DNA of 33,657 nt from a virus (Duplodnaviria > Heunggongvirae > Uroviricota > Caudoviricetes). The stretch is from the IMG/VR virus record IMGVR_UViG_2939152649_000001. One strand, written 5' to 3'. Shown piece after piece: positions 1 to 32,960 of the stretch. The position numbers and the translations under genes are program-made. Within the stretch, counting starts at the first letter, position 1, and each line of letters opens with the position of its first letter. Below the pieces are notes generated by a model. The model did no database searches. It was given only the letters and a program-made list of their open reading frames with translations, and was not told where the DNA came from.

Positions 1-251
1 ATGAGCGGTAAGCGTTATCCCGAAGAGTTTAAAACTGAAGCAGTCAAACAGGTTGTTGATCGCGGTTATTCTGTTGCCAGCGTTGCAACACGTCTCGATA
101 TCACCACCCACAGCCTTTATGCCTGGATAAAGAAGTACGGTCCGGATTCTTCCACTAATAAAGAACAGTCAGATGCTCAGGCCGAGATCCGCCGTCTCCA
201 GAAAGAGCTGAAACGGGTTACCGACGAACGGGACATATTAAAAAAAGCCGC
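1..251 (+). pseudogene. IS3-family transposase OrfA, split by the IS30 insertion (last ~10 codons resume at 1473..1502)
   Basis: Translation MSGKRYPEEFKTEAVKQVV...ERDILKKAA; joining the flanks after removing IS30 and one copy of the GC duplication gives ...KKAAAYFAKLSD-stop, a typical IS3-family OrfA terminus. Confidence 0.8.
240..247 (+). other. A AAA AAG programmed -1 frameshift motif of the IS3-family element (OrfA to OrfAB)
   Basis: Run of seven A then G at the end of orfA; the -1 frame downstream reads ...RYAFIRDNSCCWPVRLLCRVLDVHPSGFYAW, continuous with OrfB. Confidence 0.6.
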
Positions 252-1472
252 TGTAGATTCAATTGGTCAACGCAACAGTTATGTGAAAACATGGGGTTGC
301 GGAGGTTTTTTGAATGAGACGAACATTTACAGCAGAGGAAAAAGCCTCTGTTTTTGAACTATGGAAGAACGGAACAGGCTTCAGTGAAATAGCGAATATC
401 CTGGGTTCAAAACCCGGAACGATCTTCACTATGTTAAGGGATACTGGCGGCATAAAACCCCATGAGCGTAAGCGGGCTGTAGCTCACCTGACACTGTCTG
501 AGCGCGAGGAGATACGAGCTGGTTTGTCAGCCAAAATGAGCATTCGTGCGATAGCTACTGCGCTGAATCGCAGTCCTTCGACGATCTCACGTGAAGTTCA
601 GCGTAATCGGGGCAGACGCTATTACAAAGCTGTTGATGCTAATAACCGAGCCAACAGAATGGCGAAAAGGCCAAAACCGTGCTTACTGGATCAAAATTTA
701 CCATTGCGAAAGCTTGTTCTGGAAAAGCTGGAGATGAAATGGTCTCCAGAGCAAATATCAGGATGGTTAAGGCGAACAAAACCACGTCAAAAAACGCTGC
801 GAATATCACCTGAGACAATTTATAAAACGCTGTACTTTCGTAGCCGTGAAGCGCTACACCACCTGAATATACAGCATCTGCGACGGTCGCATAGCCTTCG
901 CCATGGCAGGCGTCATACCCGCAAAGGCGAAAGAGGTACGATTAACATAGTGAACGGAACACCAATTCACGAACGTTCCCGAAATATCGATAACAGACGC
1001 TCTCTGGGGCATTGGGAGGGCGATTTAGTCTCAGGTACAAAAAACTCTCATATAGCCACACTTGTAGACCGAAAATCACGTTATACGATCATCCTTAGAC
1101 TCAGGGGCAAAGATTCTGTCTCAGTAAATCAGGCTCTTACCGACAAATTCCTGAGTTTACCGTCAGAACTCAGAAAATCACTGACATGGGACAGAGGAAT
1201 GGAACTGGCCAGACATCTAGAATTTACTGTCAGCACCGGCGTTAAAGTTTACTTCTGCGATCCTCAGAGTCCTTGGCAGCGGGGAACAAATGAGAACACA
1301 AATGGGCTAATTCGGCAGTACTTTCCTAAAAAGACATGTCTTGCCCAATATACTCAACATGAACTAGATCTGGTTGCTGCTCAGCTAAACAACAGACCGA
1401 GAAAGACACTGAAGTTCAAAACACCGAAAGAGATAATTGAAAGGGGTGTTGCATTGACAGATTGAATCTACA
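252..1472 (+). mobile_element. IS30, complete 1221-bp copy
   Basis: Terminal inverted repeats TGTAGATTCAATTGGTCAACGCAAC (252..) and its imperfect reverse complement ending ...GAATCTACA (..1472); flanked by 2-bp GC direct duplication (250-251 and 1473-1474); single 383-aa transposase ORF. Confidence 0.9.
314..1465 (+). CDS. insI: IS30 transposase
   Basis: 383-aa ORF MRRTFTAEEKASVFELWKNGTGFSEIANILG... recognised as the IS30 transposase; fills the element between the inverted repeats. Confidence 0.93.
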   Translation: MRRTFTAEEKASVFELWKNGTGFSEIANILGSKPGTIFTMLRDTGGIKPHERKRAVAHLTLSEREEIRAGLSAKMSIRAIATALNRSPSTISREVQRNRGRRYYKAVDANNRANRMAKRPKPCLLDQNLPLRKLVLEKLEMKWSPEQISGWLRRTKPRQKTLRISPETIYKTLYFRSREALHHLNIQHLRRSHSLRHGRRHTRKGERGTINIVNGTPIHERSRNIDNRRSLGHWEGDLVSGTKNSHIATLVDRKSRYTIILRLRGKDSVSVNQALTDKFLSLPSELRKSLTWDRGMELARHLEFTVSTGVKVYFCDPQSPWQRGTNENTNGLIRQYFPKKTCLAQYTQHELDLVAAQLNNRPRKTLKFKTPKEIIERGVALTD

Positions 1473-1558
1473 GCGGCGTACTTCGCAAAGCTGTCCGACT
1501 GAGGTACGCCTTTATCCGTGACAACTCCTGTTGCTGGCCTGTTCGCCTGCTCTGTCGG

Positions 1559-2371
1559 GTGCTGGATGTTCATCCCAGTGGTTTTTACGCCTGGCTTCAG
1601 CAGCCGCATTCACAACGCCATCAGGCAGACCTGAGACTGACAGGACAGATTAAACAGTTCTGGCTGGAATCGGGATGCGTCTATGGTTATCGCAAAATCC
1701 ATCTGGATTTGCGTGACAGCGGGCAACAGTGCGGAGTAAACAGAGTCTGGAGACTGATGAAACGTGTCGGAATAAAGGCTCAGGTCGGATACCGAAGCCC
1801 GCGGGCACGTAAAGGCGAGGCCAGTATCGTGTCACCCAACAGGCTCCAGCGACAGTTCAATCCGGATGCTCCTGATGAGCGTTGGGTAACGGACATAACC
1901 TACATCAGGACCCACGAAGGCTGGCTGTATCTTGCCGTTGTTGTTGATCTGTTCTCACGCAAAATTATCGGCTGGTCCATGCAATCCCGGATGACAAAGG
2001 ACATTGTCCTGAACGCACTGCTGATGGCTGTATGGCGGCGTAATCCCGAAAAACAGGTGCTGGTTCATTCGGATCAGGGCAGTCAGTACACAAGCCATGA
2101 GTGGCAGTCGTTCCTGAAATCACACGGCCTGGAGGGTAGCATGAGCCGTCGCGGTAACTGCCATGATAATGCGGTTGCAGAAAGTTTTTTCCAGTTGTTG
2201 AAACGTGAACGGATAAAGAAAAAGATCTACGGAACGCGGGAAGAAGCCCGCAGTGATATTTTTGATTACATCGAAATGTTTTATAACAGTAAGCGTCGGC
2301 ATGGTTCTAGCGAACAGATGTCACCGACAGAATATGAAAACCAGTATTATCAACGGCTCGGAAGTGTCTAG
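1559..2371 (+). CDS. IS3-family transposase OrfB (integrase catalytic core); normally made as OrfAB fusion by -1 frameshift
   Basis: 270-aa ORF with WVTDITYI...LAVVVDLFSRKIIGWS...HSDQGSQYTS...NAVAESFF motifs typical of DDE integrase-core transposases; reading frame extends upstream of the first Met to the slippery site. Confidence 0.85.
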   Translation: MLDVHPSGFYAWLQQPHSQRHQADLRLTGQIKQFWLESGCVYGYRKIHLDLRDSGQQCGVNRVWRLMKRVGIKAQVGYRSPRARKGEASIVSPNRLQRQFNPDAPDERWVTDITYIRTHEGWLYLAVVVDLFSRKIIGWSMQSRMTKDIVLNALLMAVWRRNPEKQVLVHSDQGSQYTSHEWQSFLKSHGLEGSMSRRGNCHDNAVAESFFQLLKRERIKKKIYGTREEARSDIFDYIEMFYNSKRRHGSSEQMSPTEYENQYYQRLGSV

Positions 2372-2389
2372 ATTATCCGTGGCGATTCA

Positions 2390-2674
2390 GTTATGAACTT
2401 GGGGGTCTATACCATTTGTAAGCAACGACAAGTATTCATCACGTAAAGCTCGTGCCTTCGCAAGTGTAAGGTGAGGATAGGTTCCTAAGCTCACCTTAGT
2501 TCGCTTTTTGGTCACAGGCACTGCATATCTGAAATACCAATTTTTCTTCCCTCCCTTCGCCAGGGGAGCGATTCGCAACAGCAAACCATCGCCGTCAAAA
2601 AGGTTAACCTCTTTTTCGGCAGGTTTGGTGCTTTTGATTTCAGTGTCAGTGAGCTTCTTAGCGATTTTGGCCAT
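2390..2674 (-). pseudogene. P4-type (CP4-57 IntA-like) tyrosine integrase, N-terminal arm-binding domain only; 3' part removed by the IS3-family insertion
   Basis: MAKIAKKLTDTEIKSTKPAEKEVNLFDGDGLLLRIAPLAKGGKKNWYFRYAVPVTKKRTKVSLGTYPHLTLAKARALRDEYLSLLTNGIDPQ matches the conserved N-terminus of P4-family integrases; the ORF runs into IS sequence after ~95 codons, and no catalytic domain follows. Confidence 0.75.
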
Positions 2675-2772
2675 GTTTGGGACCCTCGATTTTAGGACCC
2701 ATCTTCGTGGGTCCCATTCAGGGTGCCATAACTCGTAGTTCTCAGCAATTCTCACTAGACTACAATAGACGT

Positions 2773-3002: not shown

Positions 3003-4028
3003 TTAGCGATGCCAGTTGAGGTTATGAAGTGGATTTTTGGTAACGGCATCTTCCAGATGATCCGGTGCAAAATGGGCATAAATCATGGTCATTTTAATAT
3101 CAGCGTGCCCTAAAATATCCCTCAATACTAAAATGTTTCCGCCGTTCATCATAAAGTGGCTGGCGAAAGTGTGGCGCAGAACGTGGGTACATTGACCTTC
3201 AGGTAGTTCAATTCCAGCTCGTTTTACCGCACGCTCAAAAGCCTTTCGGCATGGTGTGAATAACTTTCCTCTGTTTTTGGGTAATTCTTCATACAGTTCC
3301 TGAGAAATAGGAACAGTTCGGTTTTTCTTTCCTTTTGTTTTGGTATAGGTAATTCGATACTTTGATATCTGGTTACCTTGCAGGTTTTCGGCTTCGCTCC
3401 ATCTTGCCCCGGTTGCCAGACAAATCTTGGCAATCATTAGCAGACTGGGACTTTGAGATTCAGCACAAGCGTCAAGCAGGCGTTTGATTTCATCAGCAGC
3501 AAGGAACGCCAGTTCACCCTCTGCAATTTTGAAAGTTGGCAGACCGGCGAGAGGGTTGGGTGCAGACCAATGTCCCAGCTTTTTCAGTGTGCCAAAAACT
3601 GAGGATAGGTTACGTTGTTCAAGGTTCACCGTTCTGGGCTTAACTGGTGACATGAGCACACCATCTTCGTTTTTGACCTCACCTTTTAATCTGGCTTCCC
3701 GGTATTTTGTGAAATCACCTGCTGTCAATTCAGAAGCGATGGGATCGCCAAGCCCATTACAAATGATTTTTAACTTAGCCATTAATCGCTTAGGGTCAGC
3801 GAGTGTCTGACCGTACAGGGAATACCATTGCTCAATCACTTCTGACAGTTGTCGCCGATCTTCCTTTTCTCCCAGCCAAGGTTTCTTGTTTACCTCGTCC
3901 ATGGTGAAATTCTCAAACGCAATGGCTTCGCCTTTCGTCGCAAATTGTTTGCGTACGCGTTTGCCATCTCGCCCGTTTGGGTAGCATTCACATAACCACT
4001 TTCCGTTCGGCTGTTTTCTGATGGTCAT
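3003..4028 (-). CDS. int: Phage integrase (tyrosine recombinase), P2/186 type
   Basis: 341-aa ORF next to attL; C-terminal catalytic region ...ATGARWSE...HVLRHTFASHFMMNGGNILVLRDILGHADIKMTMIYAHF carries the R..H-x-x-R..Y signature of tyrosine recombinases. Confidence 0.93.
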   Translation of the reverse strand: MTIRKQPNGKWLCECYPNGRDGKRVRKQFATKGEAIAFENFTMDEVNKKPWLGEKEDRRQLSEVIEQWYSLYGQTLADPKRLMAKLKIICNGLGDPIASELTAGDFTKYREARLKGEVKNEDGVLMSPVKPRTVNLEQRNLSSVFGTLKKLGHWSAPNPLAGLPTFKIAEGELAFLAADEIKRLLDACAESQSPSLLMIAKICLATGARWSEAENLQGNQISKYRITYTKTKGKKNRTVPISQELYEELPKNRGKLFTPCRKAFERAVKRAGIELPEGQCTHVLRHTFASHFMMNGGNILVLRDILGHADIKMTMIYAHFAPDHLEDAVTKNPLHNLNWHR

Positions 4029-4029
4029 A

Positions 4030-4662
4030 TCAAAGGCTCTTAATGATTTTCAGTGCGCGGCCTATTACCTTAATGTCATCCAGTTCGCACTCAAACGATG
4101 AATCATCCTGATGCACTACTAATCTGTTTCCCGGGAGTCGTGTCAATTTTACAATGCTTTTTATCCCGTCGATGTCCACTAACCACGTACCATTTACTGG
4201 TGGTGTTTGGTTGCGATCTATTAAATAAGAATCACCAGAAGTAGTCACCAGCAGCAGGTTGCTTGAGTCTGAGGGGAGTATGCTGCTATCAATGATTGCT
4301 TTTCCAGCATCGACCAATAAACCACCGTTGAGAGTTGCCTTTTCAATTTCAGGAGATACAAGCTCAGAAAGAGGTTTAACCTTGCTGGGGTTCACGGAAT
4401 TGATATTTTTTTTAGGGTCAATGTTTGAACCTGGCTCGCCCTGTCCGGTGGTTAGCCATAGTAAAGAAACTCCTGTTTCCAAGGCGCACTGAATCACCCA
4501 TTCTGCGGGAAAGCTATCTCTTAAGTATCTGTTTGCCATAGTGCTTTTTGATGCACCTAAGTGATCGCAAAGTTGCTGTCTGGACTTGAAATCATAGGCT
4601 GCCATTAGTCTATGGATAGCCTCTCTTCCCCCTGTATTCTCGCCAGCTTTTACCTGTATCAT
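4030..4662 (-). CDS. cI: Immunity repressor CI, 186 type
   Basis: 210-aa ORF directly upstream of int, divergent from the early operon; N-terminal HTH region with ...ANRYLR...CALETGVSLLWLTTGQG resembles 186-family CI; no obvious Ser/Lys autopeptidase dyad. Confidence 0.8.
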   Translation of the reverse strand: MIQVKAGENTGGREAIHRLMAAYDFKSRQQLCDHLGASKSTMANRYLRDSFPAEWVIQCALETGVSLLWLTTGQGEPGSNIDPKKNINSVNPSKVKPLSELVSPEIEKATLNGGLLVDAGKAIIDSSILPSDSSNLLLVTTSGDSYLIDRNQTPPVNGTWLVDIDGIKSIVKLTRLPGNRLVVHQDDSSFECELDDIKVIGRALKIIKSL

Positions 4663-4679: not shown

Positions 4680-4726
4680 GTATCAAATATTGGATCGTAG
4701 TATCTCGATGTATCAAATATTGAATC
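4680..4726. promoter_or_regulatory. Lysis-lysogeny switch region with two 17-bp direct repeats (candidate operators) between cI and apl/cox
   Basis: GTATCAAATATTGGATC (4680..4696) and GTATCAAATATTGAATC (4710..4726), 30 bp apart, in the 119-bp divergent intergenic region. Confidence 0.5.
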
Positions 4727-11893: not shown

Positions 11894-13656
11894 AAAATCT
11901 CCACAATATTGCTGGTATTGGCGGACTCGCCCTGCAGCGGTTCGTTAAACAGTGCGTGCATGGTTGCCCATGCCAGATCGGCATGGCTGGCTTCTTCGCT
12001 GCGGCTGGCTTCGTAGGTCGGGCGGTTGCCACTGGCGGTGGTGGCGCGACGGATTGCCATGAATGACTGCGCAATGTCGGTATGTCCGGCGTCAAACTCC
12101 AGACGGCGGTGGCTGATAATGTCGTAGGCCTTGAGTACCAGGGCGTTTTTAACGTTGGGGTTGTAGACAAACTCCCGGACGGCAGGAAAGAACGCTTTCA
12201 CGTTCTCGTAAACCCCGTGACCGACGCCGGTTGAGTCGATACCGATATAGGTCACGTTGTACTGTTCAGTCAGTTTTTTGATGGCGTCCGCCTGGGCGCG
12301 GAAGTCCATCCCGCGCCACTGGTGACGCTCAAGAATGCGAAACTTACCGCCCGGCACGGCTGGCGGAGCCACCACCACGCATCCGGCGCTGTCGCCGTTC
12401 TGCGTACCTTTTGCCGGGTCATAACCGATCCACACTTCGCGCCAGCCAAACGGGCGCAGGGCCAGTGCATGAAAGTCGGTCCAGACTTCCCAGCTGTCCA
12501 CCATGCACGCCTGCAATTCGCTGAGCGGGAACACAGATGCGAGATCGTCAACGAACTCGCACATCAGCAGGTTCTGGTATTCGTCCGGGCTGTACTCCAT
12601 GCGCAACTGGTCGAGGTCGAACAGGTTACAGCCGCCGCGCACCGCATCTTCCACGGTGACTATCTGGCGGTATTGCCCGTCTGCGCACAGCAGGCCGGGG
12701 GCCAGATTGCTGTGGGACAGGTCGATGTCCACCTTGTCGGCTTTGTTGCGCCCACGGTTGAACAGCGCACCGGACCAGAACGGATAAGCACTGTGTGTCA
12801 GGCTGGATGGCGTGGAAAAATAGGTCTGTCGCCATTTCTTGTGAATAGCCATACCGGAAGCCACTTTGCGCAGCTCCTGGAATTTCGGTATCCAGAAATA
12901 TTCATCCAGATACAGGTTGCCGTGGTAACTCTGGGCCGTGCGGGCATTGGTGCCGAGGAAATACAGTGTGGCCCCGTTGGGAAGCACCATCGGATCGCCT
13001 TTCAGCTCCACCTCCACTTCTTTGGCGAAGTCGATGATGTACTGCTTAAAGACGTGAGCCTGTGCCTTACTGGCAGAAAGGAAAATCTGGTTACGTCCGG
13101 TAAGCAGGGCGTCAATCAGGGCTTCACGGGCAAAGTAAAAGGTCGCACCGATCTGGCGTGACTTCAGCAGGTTGCGGATGCGGTTGGTTTTTCCGGCTTC
13201 CCACCAGTGGCGCTGATAGTTGAACATGGAGGAATGGAAGATTTCTTCCAGCTTCTCAATCTGTTCATCGGTGAAAACGTTCTTTTCCGGCTGACGACGC
13301 GGGCCTTTGTTTCGGTTGGCGACGTTAGGGTTTAAGTCGGCTTCGTTGCCGCCATTGTTAAACTTGCCGATCCGCGCATGGCGCTCCGACTGGCGCGCCA
13401 GCAGGTCAATCTCTTTGAAATCTTTCCCTTCTTTGTGCTCCTTCATAATGAGCTGGCAGTAGCGTGCGGCGGTGGTGAGCTGCATCTGATCCAGCGGCCC
13501 ATAGTCACCCCACTTGTCGCGTTTTTTCCAGCTGTGAACGGTTGCAACTTTCTCGCCCAGCATTTCAGCAATGCGGGCTACGCGGTATCCCTGAAAGTAC
13601 AGCAGCATGGCCTGCCGACGGGGATCGAGATCTGCGGGTGTCAGTGTGGTGTTCAT
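11890..13656 (-). CDS. P: Terminase large (ATPase) subunit
   Basis: 588-aa ORF upstream of Q on the same strand; N-terminal region with ...SRQIGATFYF... (Walker A-like) and acidic ...LYLDEYFWIP... segment; P2 gpP position and size. Confidence 0.93.
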   Translation of the reverse strand: MNTTLTPADLDPRRQAMLLYFQGYRVARIAEMLGEKVATVHSWKKRDKWGDYGPLDQMQLTTAARYCQLIMKEHKEGKDFKEIDLLARQSERHARIGKFNNGGNEADLNPNVANRNKGPRRQPEKNVFTDEQIEKLEEIFHSSMFNYQRHWWEAGKTNRIRNLLKSRQIGATFYFAREALIDALLTGRNQIFLSASKAQAHVFKQYIIDFAKEVEVELKGDPMVLPNGATLYFLGTNARTAQSYHGNLYLDEYFWIPKFQELRKVASGMAIHKKWRQTYFSTPSSLTHSAYPFWSGALFNRGRNKADKVDIDLSHSNLAPGLLCADGQYRQIVTVEDAVRGGCNLFDLDQLRMEYSPDEYQNLLMCEFVDDLASVFPLSELQACMVDSWEVWTDFHALALRPFGWREVWIGYDPAKGTQNGDSAGCVVVAPPAVPGGKFRILERHQWRGMDFRAQADAIKKLTEQYNVTYIGIDSTGVGHGVYENVKAFFPAVREFVYNPNVKNALVLKAYDIISHRRLEFDAGHTDIAQSFMAIRRATTASGNRPTYEASRSEEASHADLAWATMHALFNEPLQGESANTSNIVEIF

Positions 13657-31678: not shown

Positions 31679-31746
31679 AGCGTTCTCAATATTGATATTT
31701 TGTGTATCATTACAATAATTCTGATAGCAAAGGTAGGGATCTGGAT

Positions 31747-31965
31747 ATGATGAATTGTCCAAAGTGTGGTCATGCGGCACACACAAGGAGCAGTTTTCAA
31801 GTAACTGAAAGCACCAAAGAGCGTTACTGCCAGTGCCAAAATATTAACTGCGGGAGCACTTTTGTTACCCATGAAACAGTGGTCCGGTTTATTGTGACAC
31901 CCGCACTGATTGCTACTGCTCCTCCACATCCATTGCCAGGTGGTCAGGGGCATATGAATTTTTGA
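31747..31965 (+). CDS. ogr: Ogr/Delta/B-family zinc-finger late-gene transcriptional activator
   Basis: MMNCPKCGHAAHTRSS...KERYCQCQNINCGSTFVTHETVVRFIV...HPLPGGQ closely parallels P2 Ogr as recalled (Cys-x2-Cys ... Cys-x4-Cys zinc finger). Confidence 0.85.
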   Translation: MMNCPKCGHAAHTRSSFQVTESTKERYCQCQNINCGSTFVTHETVVRFIVTPALIATAPPHPLPGGQGHMNF

Positions 31966-31972
31966 GAAAGAG

Positions 31973-31996
31973 AACCTGCTACGGCAGGTTTTTATT
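31973..31996. terminator. Bidirectional rho-independent terminator between ogr and the convergent cargo gene
   Basis: AACCTGC-TACG-GCAGGTT hairpin (7-bp stem, 4-nt loop) followed by TTTTTATT on the plus strand and a CT-rich tract on the minus strand. Confidence 0.6.
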
Positions 31997-32474
31997 CATC
32001 TGGGATCTCACCCGTTTCAAGAAAATGTATAAAGCCAGGCTCATCTATGATGATTGTGCCTTTCATCCTGGCTGCCGATACTTTTGATGGGCCTGCATTG
32101 TAACCGCAACAGAGCATCTGAAGGCTTTGGGTTACAGAGGTTCTTACCGTTAATCCTTGTTCATTCGCCTTATCAACCAATCTTTCTTTATCTGCTTTCT
32201 TAAATCCGGTGAAACACACATCGAATGTATTTTTTTTCGGACCAGACTGCTTAGTGAGATGTGAGTAGTTTTCGGGGAGGAATGATGTGCATTCCTGAAT
32301 GGCTTGTTCTGGTGAATCGTACTGTTTAAGAATGCGGTCTTTTCGGAAGGTTTTTATTCGATCGGTGTTCTTACAAATGCCCTGTATATGATTTTCGCTA
32401 TAACTGATGCTCTGTATAGAGTGAACACCGATACGACCATTTGCATTGATGTAAACAAAGTGAAGTTCTTCCAT
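31992..32474 (-). CDS. Cargo protein of unknown function: N-terminal WYL-like region and C-terminal BRCT-like region
   Basis: 160-aa ORF with AGAGG ribosome-binding site. Residues ~5-47 (FVYINANGRIGVHSIQSISYSENHIQGICKNTDRIKTFRKDRI) fit the WYL pattern, including the R-x-F-R-x-D-R-I hallmark; residues ~83-150 (TFDVCFTGFKKADKERLVDKANEQGLTVRTSVTQS...GTIIIDEPGFIHFL) fit a BRCT-like pattern as in NAD-ligase C-termini. Domain calls by eye, not profile search. Confidence 0.8.
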   Translation of the reverse strand: MEELHFVYINANGRIGVHSIQSISYSENHIQGICKNTDRIKTFRKDRILKQYDSPEQAIQECTSFLPENYSHLTKQSGPKKNTFDVCFTGFKKADKERLVDKANEQGLTVRTSVTQSLQMLCCGYNAGPSKVSAARMKGTIIIDEPGFIHFLETGEIPDE

Positions 32475-32500
32475 GTCAAACCTCTTTGCATGATTTCAAG

Positions 32501-32539
32501 ATGGCGACAGGCAAGATGGACGCAAAAGTCTGTCGCCAT
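32501..32539. promoter_or_regulatory. Perfect 10-bp inverted repeat with 19-bp spacer in the leader of the cargo gene (candidate operator or RNA structure)
   Basis: ATGGCGACAG (32501-32510) and CTGTCGCCAT (32530-32539); lies 27 bp upstream of the cargo gene start codon on the minus strand. Confidence 0.5.
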
Positions 32540-32554
32540 TTTGCCGCCACTACC

Positions 32555-32589
32555 TAAGAAAAAGGGGCTACGCTTTCACGTAACCCCTT
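32555..32589 (-). terminator. Rho-independent terminator of ssrA, supplied by the prophage side of the att site
   Basis: On the ssrA strand: AAGGGGUUACG-UGAAAG-CGUAGCCCCUU (11-bp stem including one G-U pair) followed by UUUUUCUU, 9 nt past the mature CCA end. Confidence 0.7.
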
Positions 32590-32593
32590 GATT

Positions 32594-32642
32594 TATTTGG
32601 TGGAGCTGGCGGGAGTTGAACCCGCGTCCGAAATTCCTACAT
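32594..32642. repeat. 49-bp att core at the 3' end of ssrA (attR), direct repeat of 2837..2885
   Basis: Exact identity to the left copy. Confidence 0.9.
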
Positions 32643-32960
32643 CCTCGGTACTACATGCTTAGTCAGTCTTTACATTCGCTTGCCAGCTGCGGACGGACAC
32701 GCCACTAACAAACTAGCCTGATTAAGTTTTAACGCTTCAACCCCAGGCAGGACTTCCACGCGATCTCTTTTGGGTTTGACCTCTCTTGATCCCCGTCCTA
32801 AGAGCGGAGGCTAGGGAGAGAGGGCTCTAAGCAGGTTATTAAGCTGCTAAAGCGTAGTTTTCGTCGTTTGCGACTATTTTTTGCGGCTTTTTACGAGGCC
32901 AACCGCCCCTCGGCATGCACCTTGGGTTTCGCAAATCCCGTCGAATCCAGAATCAGCCCC
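32598..32960 (-). ncRNA. ssrA: tmRNA (transfer-messenger RNA), 363 nt
   Basis: Reverse complement reads GGGGCTGATTCTGGATTCGACGGGATTTGCGAAACCC ... GCAAACGACGAAAACTACGCTTTAGCAGCTTAA (ANDENYALAA tag) ... GGGTTCAACTCCCGCCAGCTCCACCA, matching E. coli tmRNA as recalled. Confidence 0.97.

Follow-up and report, generated by a model that had tools for sequence, protein, structure and literature searches.

The rexAB genes of phage lambda, nun of HK022 and bstA of the Salmonella phage BTP1 are co-transcribed with the immunity repressor, and genes of this kind typically serve exclusion or defence. To our knowledge, WYL domains have so far been understood only as ligand sensors carried on transcription factors or enzymes, and BRCT domains in bacteria have been known almost exclusively as attachments to LigA and a small number of repair enzymes. 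The combination of the two was catalogued in the 2014 domain survey of Makarova et al., which lists BRCT among the WYL fusion partners and gives no family definition, phage context or function (PMC4012209). Here we analyze a WYL-BRCT gene at positions 31992..32474 (minus strand) of a 33,657-nt stretch of Caudoviricetes DNA (IMG/VR record IMGVR_UViG_2939152649_000001), referred to as a whole as the window. The window contains a 29.7-kb 186-like prophage (Peduoviridae, Elveevirus-type) inserted at the 3' end of ssrA. A first-pass annotation, made from the sequence without database searches, had singled out this gene as acquired antisense cargo at the prophage edge. We find that it belongs to an uncharacterised family built from known parts, and that in phages it travels as an optional part of the immunity (cI) transcription unit of temperate phages, in the place taken by rexAB in lambda. 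We tentatively propose that the protein excludes superinfecting phages by binding gapped or nicked DNA, without enzymatic activity.

Domain architecture of the WYL-BRCT protein

The coding sequence (31992..32474, stop codon included) is present in the open reading frame list, starts with ATG and encodes 160 amino acids, giving a product of 18 kDa. A Shine-Dalgarno sequence, AGAGG, can be read at 32481..32485 on the same strand, 6 nt before the ATG, and relatives of the gene have AAAGGTGA at this position. The earlier description of a 160-residue minus-strand reading frame with its own ribosome-binding site between ogr and attR was therefore correct.

An alignment of 56 same-length relatives was used both for the AlphaFold (AF2) model and for the conservation figures given below. 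The model has a mean predicted local distance difference test (pLDDT) score of 91, with lower confidence in the linker region (mean 68 for the block of residues 71-80). Residues 3-52 (32319..32468, minus strand) form a WYL-type, Sm/SH3-like barrel of five strands that superposes on solved WYL domains. Two short helices follow in the AF2 secondary structure (residues 55-73, 32256..32312, minus strand), then a linker (residues 74-84) and a single BRCT domain with the beta-alpha-beta-beta-alpha-beta-alpha topology of that fold (residues 85-154, 32013..32222, minus strand). The WYL-typical motif [KR]TFRxDRI is present in the translation as K41-T-F-R-K-D-R-I48 (32331..32354, minus strand); T42 is invariant among the relatives, F43 and R44 are conserved in at least 90%, and position 41 is K or R in 96%. 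In the C-terminal half, the strings VCFTGF and GTIIIDEPGFIHFL are both found. Because a sequence search of the PDB returned BRCT matches only, the WYL relatives were found with a structure model of that domain alone, and the structurally closest WYL domains to the barrel are those of CapW, DriD and PafBC.

Pfam profiles detect the two domains unequally across the family. The window protein has no match to WYL (PF13280) even at E<=10, and matches were obtained for 4 of the 56 same-length relatives (best 1.5e-5) and for 23 of 44 extended ones (best 1.2e-8). For BRCT (PF00533) the window protein scores 19.6 bits (E 1e-3), under the gathering cut-off of 21.3, while 40 of the 56 relatives match at E<=0.01, as do 37 of the 44 extended relatives, the best at 7.5e-21. 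The W-Y-L triad on the third strand is absent, with N28-H29-I30 in its place; the family consensus there is x-H-x, where H29 is the majority residue and no residue reaches 50% at positions 28 and 30. The triads of CapW and BrxR deviate too, reading WHV (PMC11662680).

Profile searches of the window protein found no helix-turn-helix (HTH) family, no catalytic domain and no WCX domain, in agreement with the AF2 model, and since the barrel, the two short helices, the linker and the BRCT domain account for all 160 residues, there is no room for a further domain. We consider the two-domain architecture of WYL plus BRCT nearly certain. The WYL-like N-terminus, the BRCT-like C-terminus and the lack of an HTH or catalytic domain had all been suggested from the letters alone, and they were borne out by profile search and structure prediction, which gave the WYL and BRCT folds and no different characterised fold. 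The protein differs from the winged HTH-WYL-WCX regulators (CapW, BrxR, DriD, PafBC) in having neither a winged HTH nor a WCX domain and in carrying a BRCT domain as output, and it is therefore no transcription factor. An acidic C-terminal tail, ETGEIP[DE]x (residues 153-160, window 31995-32018), is conserved in the family, with T154 and G155 in at least 90% of relatives and some members ending in PDF. Speculatively, this tail faintly resembles the protein-interaction tip at the C-terminus of the single-stranded DNA-binding protein SSB.

Linkage to the immunity repressor and accessory status

Clustered at 50% identity, the family counts 2,627 clusters with a threshold of E<=1e-3 and 889 with E<=1e-10. 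A set of 50,697 phage records contained 28 carriers, all of them temperate; 27 belong to the P2-like phages that infect Escherichia, Yersinia, Vibrio, Burkholderia and Mannheimia, the remaining one is a lambdoid Pseudomonas phage, and no virulent phage in this set carries the family. Certain members are duplicated in tandem or anchored in the membrane. In environmental Gammaproteobacteria and marine metagenome-assembled genomes, the WYL-BRCT module is joined at its N- or C-terminus to an uncharacterised domain of about 200 residues (W.F.V..F..AL...WTQGH.F.F..GD...LQV), or has a gene for this domain as its neighbour (P0121, P0124, P0129, P0130, P0158, P0172, P0182; L113 5502-6098; L130 2174-3163; L146 3587-4036). 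Neither Pfam nor the PDB gave a match to this extra domain, and the window lacks it.

In every phage lineage that carries the family, the homolog is co-directional with the immunity repressor and lies downstream of it, immediately so in seven phage or prophage lineages. The Mannheimia phage PHL101 has the order cI-gene, where the gene starts 4 nt past the cI stop and its annotated ribosome-binding site lies inside cI. The order is cI-gene-orf-int in Vibrio PV94, XRE-orf-gene in the Burkholderia phages and S24-type cI-orf-gene in the lambdoid Pseudomonas phage. A tight cI-gene-int block is present in Y. ruckeri, S. ficaria, X. bovienii and one further contig; the gaps measure 2-35 nt on the cI side of the gene and 2-22 nt on the int side (3-23 bp when counted from start to end). 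Over 49 species-level loci, a repressor (CI, S24 or XRE) stands directly upstream in 14, and six more have the E. coli layout smpB-ssrA-gene-ogr.

The window has this last layout. The WYL-BRCT gene lies inside the prophage, between ogr and attR. The ogr gene (31747..31965, plus strand; Ogr_Delta match, E 9e-21) is the late activator at the right end of the prophage and is convergent with the WYL-BRCT gene, which lies 119 nt from the attR core. This core (32594..32642) is the 3' end of ssrA and forms a perfect 49-nt direct repeat with attL (2837-2885); the tmRNA gene is located at 32598-32960 (minus strand), followed by smpB. At the opposite end is the 186-type lysogeny unit (3003..4662, minus strand), made up of int (3003-4028) and cI (4030-4662) with Pfam matches to Int_N, Phage_integrase, Phage_CI_repr and Phage_CI_C. 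In the circularised phage genome, cI-int is co-directional with the WYL-BRCT gene and upstream of it. The circular genome of Yersinia phage MLG42 likewise reads cI-int-attP-gene, and that of Cartapus cI-int-RES gene-attP-gene. For the phage in the window this order exists only in the circular form, as integration puts the whole prophage between the WYL-BRCT gene and cI-int. Since homologs follow cI elsewhere and the circular order is cI-int-attP-gene, the window gene is a passenger of the lysogeny unit that has moved beyond int-attP and lands at the ogr/attR edge after integration. Instead of an isolated antisense acquisition, as the first-pass annotation had it, the gene is the last co-directional gene of the cI-int unit on circular DNA, and its homologs mostly lie between cI and int. 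That it belongs to the lysogeny unit is, in our judgement, very probable.

The gene is also accessory. It is absent at the same ogr-ssrA attachment junction in RE-2010, SEN8 and a Klebsiella Gegavirus, where only tiny open reading frames are found, and absent from Klebsiella phage Kp4845-2 despite an int-cI module 92% identical to that in the window. The earlier reading as cargo thus stands: the slot is empty in close relatives, and the gene is no conserved part of the P2/186 core. Other cargo occurs between int and attP in these phages, namely a 402-residue RES-domain (NAD+-binding) protein in Cartapus (L001 2508-3713) and an unannotated 506-residue open reading frame in Kp4845-2 (L149 133-1653), and both flanks of attP therefore act as accessory-gene slots.

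Two isolated phages, 500465-1 and Cartapus, have near-identical copies (98-99%), and MLG42 has one of about 73% identity. The ogr-gene-ssrA junction is present in 171 of 5,426 complete E. coli genomes (about 3%); in E. coli LS4 it matches the window at 100% identity over 31700-32620. The ratio of nonsynonymous to synonymous substitution rates (dN/dS) is 0.09 against the Cartapus copy and 0.07 against a Plesiomonas copy, pointing to purifying selection. On the strength of these comparisons, we take the gene to be functional and no relic. Its GC content of 41%, against 53% for the prophage, was not taken to prove a recent acquisition, since cI, int and ogr are AT-rich to a similar degree.

The leader, the attachment arms and the flanking terminators

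The first-pass annotation had also remarked on an inverted repeat in the leader of the gene. The repeat is present, with 14-nt arms at 32497-32510 and 32530-32543 that are complementary at 13 of 14 positions and share a perfect 10-nt core, CTGTCGCCAT, but it is best read as part of attP and not as a regulator of the gene. It is built from copies of TG(T/C)CGCCA, two of them in tandem at 32531 and 32542 (11-bp spacing) and one inverted at 32502. These make up the P-arm repeats of attP (32502..32549), with the tandem TGTCGCCA-N3-TGCCGCCA at 32531-32549 and the inverted copy at 32502-32509. The other attachment arm carries an identical 11-bp-spaced pair at 2980 and 2991 (2980-2998). The tandem TGGCGRCA-N3-TGGCGRCA is invariant across the 15 aligned leaders, also where the attachment core is a different gene, while the inverted repeat has a second arm that differs between lineages and is not conserved. 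The tandem stands on both sides of attP, about 206 bp apart, in Cartapus (3720-3738 and 3926-3944 of L001), in MLG42 and in SEN8, which lacks the gene; in L009 its copies on the two attP arms are at 3502-3520 and 3708-3726, and in PV94 it abuts int. From this arrangement, the tandem repeats are probably arm-type attP sites bound by this integrase family. A role of the inverted repeat as a regulatory hairpin or operator was rejected because the tandem is invariant, recurs on the other arm and occurs in a phage without the gene, and because the second arm is confined to single lineages. As RNA, the repeat has an unremarkable fold (z score -2.5). Elsewhere in the window, a 25-nt stretch of the late region (12813-12837) is 80% identical to the P-arm sequence at 32517-32541 and contains a perfect CTGTCGCCAT, which may be chance, since the 8-mer TGYCGCCA is over-represented in the window, with 17 copies against 3.5 expected.

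Directly upstream of the leader lies a phage-supplied ssrA terminator (32562..32589, minus strand) with a 12-bp stem and a T-run (-19.8 kcal/mol, z score -5.9). At the other end of the gene, a hairpin terminator common to ogr and the WYL-BRCT gene (31973..31990) fills the 26-nt gap between the convergent stop codons. It folds to -17.7 kcal/mol with a U-run on the plus strand, the ogr side, and is weaker for the minus-strand WYL-BRCT gene (-11.8 kcal/mol, U-run interrupted); as it folds on both strands, the bidirectional terminator described at first is confirmed. Between cI and apl are two 17-nt direct repeats, GTATCAAATATTGRATC, at 4680-4696 and 4710-4726, 30 bp apart, which are presumably the CI operators of the pR/pL switch. 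The rest of the window has no copy of this repeat, and none precedes ogr or the WYL-BRCT gene. Left of attL (window 1-2755) is a nest of insertion sequences in which IS3-type OrfA (1-357) and OrfB (1559-2371) are split by an IS30-type transposase (314-1465), and a 122-residue Arm-DNA-bind_3 integrase N-terminal remnant (2387-2755, minus strand) abuts attL. These look like an earlier island at ssrA, with a truncated integrase, that the 186-like prophage has displaced, a case of tandem ssrA use.

Ligand pockets, proposed function and rival explanations

The family profile matches the BRCT domains of RFC1 (p140/Rfc1) and LigA best (E 5e-5). The folds are the same, and in the alignment the family motifs FTG and AGPxK correspond to FTG and AGPKK in yeast Rfc1 and to the matching positions in LigA. 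T89, G90 and K131 are invariant in the 56 relatives, and column 96 is always basic, mostly K. Phosphate-binding BRCT domains have S/T-G in the beta1-alpha1 loop and a lysine starting alpha2 (PMC10386641), a signature that the protein retains in T89-G90 and K131. In yeast Rfc1, K208 of the AGPKK stretch lines the cavity that holds a recessed 5' end, and the isolated human RFC1 BRCT domain binds recessed 5'-phosphorylated DNA with a dissociation constant of about 10 nM (PMC9293004). We assign the single C-terminal BRCT domain to the RFC1/LigA class and predict that, like this class, it binds 5'-phosphate DNA ends. In those proteins, in contrast, the BRCT domain is joined to a clamp loader or a ligase core and not to a sensor barrel, and here it is neutral to acidic. 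The WYL barrel retains Y8 and [KR]41-T-F-R44, and its structurally closest counterparts, CapW, DriD and PafBC, are sensors of single-stranded DNA (ssDNA), which supports an ssDNA ligand for the barrel.

Under the proposed mechanism, the WYL-BRCT protein would be made together with the repressor or just after it and would bind gapped, nicked or resected DNA, that is, ssDNA next to a 5'-phosphate end. The barrel would hold the single strand and the BRCT pocket (T89-G90, K96, K131) would cap the adjacent 5'-phosphate end. Structures occupied in this way on incoming or replicating foreign DNA could be neither sealed nor processed, which would provide superinfection exclusion for the lysogen with no enzymatic effector. 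We give this full chain a probability of about 0.35. A role in exclusion or defence is the most likely one because other optional genes in this position (rexAB, nun, bstA) have such roles. The WYL-BRCT gene resembles them as an optional, co-directional gene right downstream of the repressor in most lineages, and BstA in particular is a single protein with a domain of nucleic-acid-binding type and no obvious enzyme. It differs from all of them in sequence and fold, with no kinship in either, and in the displacement of the window copy beyond int-attP, so that exclusion is here an analogy. The setting lends further support, since the regions adjoining int and att in P2-like phages were identified as minor defence hotspots in a 2026 survey (PMC13586616).

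Several observations weigh against this proposal. In CapW, R164 and R168 of the RWHVR stretch flank the WYL strand and contact ssDNA (PMC11662680); matched by motif position, they are replaced in the phage protein by E27 (acidic in 82% of relatives) and Q31, and the ligand may therefore not be ssDNA. The protein is not basic: the family has a mean isoelectric point (pI) of 7.1 and a mean BRCT net charge of -0.7, and the BRCT domain of this copy has a pI of 5.3. Such neutral to acidic charge is unusual for a DNA binder, although a conserved K/R cluster lies at the pocket. With the BRCT pocket kept, yet the CapW arginines absent and the charge neutral or acidic, DNA is a reasonable but insecure ligand, to which we give about even odds. 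About half of the species-level loci lie outside recognisable prophage lysogeny modules, and there is no constant defence neighbour: a constant partner gene was rejected because the neighbours at 27 non-prophage loci are heterogeneous, comprising some integrases, one AbiTii and otherwise housekeeping genes. Membership in a known defence system was rejected as well, as PADLOC gave matches to the BRCT segment only, such as that to candidate PDC-S48 (residues 83-153 against model positions 335-406 of 411). Literature searches on BRCT and WYL in phages returned nothing on the family beyond the 2014 domain catalogue, and no paper defining it, noting its place in repressor operons or testing the protein.

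The expression of the window copy raises a further set of difficulties. A promoter scan of the 87-nt leader, from the ssrA terminator to the ATG, gave no sigma-70-like match, so that an own sigma-70 promoter was set aside; a TGTAAT element seen by eye in the leaders of relatives is weak at best. The leader contains no CI operator, the only copies of the operator repeat in the window being those at 4680 and 4710, and no LexA box (CTGT-N8-ACAG, searched by eye), and these two candidates were likewise dropped. The gene also sits behind the ssrA terminator. The first-pass annotation had regarded it as positioned for expression in the lysogen; for this copy the analysis does not bear that out, as the integrated gene is severed from cI-int, stands behind a strong ssrA terminator and has no recognisable promoter. 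Transcription of this copy may start at a weak promoter that escaped recognition, or may reach the gene by readthrough, either from ssrA in the lysogen or from cI-int on circular DNA.

A related but less probable version is that the protein is a minimal, effector-less lesion reader in the repressor operon, recognising ssDNA beside a 5'-phosphate. By simply occupying the site, or by drawing in host repair factors with its BRCT domain and acidic ETGEIP tail, it would abort the replication or circularisation of superinfecting phages or feed a RecA-independent damage signal into the lysis-lysogeny switch. If so, integration at ssrA would rewire the upstream transcription of the gene from cI-int to the host tmRNA gene. 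Of similar, rather low probability is a role in tuning prophage induction and the DNA-damage response, in which the protein would bind to the host chromosome at ssDNA gaps or 5' junctions. There it could raise or lower RecA-filament/SOS signalling or serve as a RecA-independent damage sensor, and in this way set the threshold of repressor inactivation. Tight operon linkage to both types of inducible repressor, S24/LexA-like and 186-type CI, is what would be expected of a switch accessory, and the solved WYL relatives found here are all sensors of DNA damage or ssDNA. The 5'-phosphate double-strand/single-strand junction that RFC1-type BRCT domains bind is, moreover, the entry point for RecFOR-mediated loading of RecA. 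However, the gene is dispensable in close relatives with near-identical cI-int modules, the protein shows no evident surface for interaction with CI or RecA, the CapW arginines that contact ssDNA have no counterparts here, and the gene also occurs outside prophages.

Somewhat less likely still is counter-defence or genome protection during establishment. Here the protein would be an early product of the cI-int transcript on the circular phage genome and would shield ends, nicks and gaps of phage DNA (for example, at annealed cos) from host nucleases or sensors, or soak up a phosphate-bearing signalling nucleotide. The circular order cI-int-attP-gene speaks for it, as readthrough would supply the protein only before integration or after excision. 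Nucleotides, c-di-GMP among them, can be bound by WYL domains (PMC11880434), and BRCT pockets take phosphate ligands (PMC10386641). Sponges and decoys are, like this protein, small and without an effector. Against this, the cI-gene-int order of most phages implies continuous expression in the lysogen, and anti-defence genes are usually early lytic; none of the phage records with the gene is from a virulent phage, and the ssrA terminator stands between int and the gene.

An accessory role in Int-mediated integration or excision at the adjoining attP is improbable. The gene always adjoins int and/or attP and its leader overlaps the putative P-arm Int sites, but SEN8, RE-2010 and Kp4845-2 do without it despite the same arm-site motif and near-identical int, it follows the repressor and not int in the lambdoid and Burkholderia phages, and neither domain is known from recombination directionality factors.

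Database names would make the protein a DNA ligase or an exonuclease. It matches PHROG 2561 ('DNA ligase') at E 4e-77, and 'DNA ligase' or 'putative exonuclease protein' is the name given in NC_049342, NC_008201, NC_028898, NC_047750 and NC_070909, with exonuclease in the Cartapus record. These names arose because LigA and the DEDDh exonuclease family carry a C-terminal BRCT domain. The NCBIfam matches to the LigA and DEDDh exonuclease models reach at most 26 bits against cut-offs of 369-1051 and cover the BRCT ends only, positions 550-650 of 652 in the former (TIGR00575, 19.5 bits against a cut-off of 444) and 229-307 of 331 in the latter. With two non-catalytic folds, helices and a linker using up its 160 residues, and without the adenylation domain with KxDG, the oligonucleotide-binding (OB) fold, the zinc finger and the helix-hairpin-helix motif of NAD+-dependent ligases, the protein has practically no chance of being either enzyme. 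A fold search of BFVD returned LigA-type BRCT domains and a 162-residue 'putative DNA ligase' of Vibrio phage SSP002 that comes without functional information. PDC-S48 and the BRCT-bearing subunit B of the split ligases of T5-like phages (PDB 9hu3_B) are unrelated in the rest of their sequence, and neither has a WYL barrel.

The main new points of this analysis are the size of the family, the restriction of its phage carriers to temperate phages, its place behind the repressor and the reading of the leader repeat as attP arm sites; in addition, a recurrent misannotation is corrected by domain analysis. The gene offers a practical system for further work, as it is a single gene carried by the isolated phages Cartapus, 500465-1 and MLG42, with natural gene-less relatives as controls. 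If the proposed function is true, a widespread stand-alone WYL-BRCT protein behind phage repressors would represent a new coupling of DNA-structure sensing to lysogeny, and it could exclude other phages without an enzyme or feed into the switch that controls induction.

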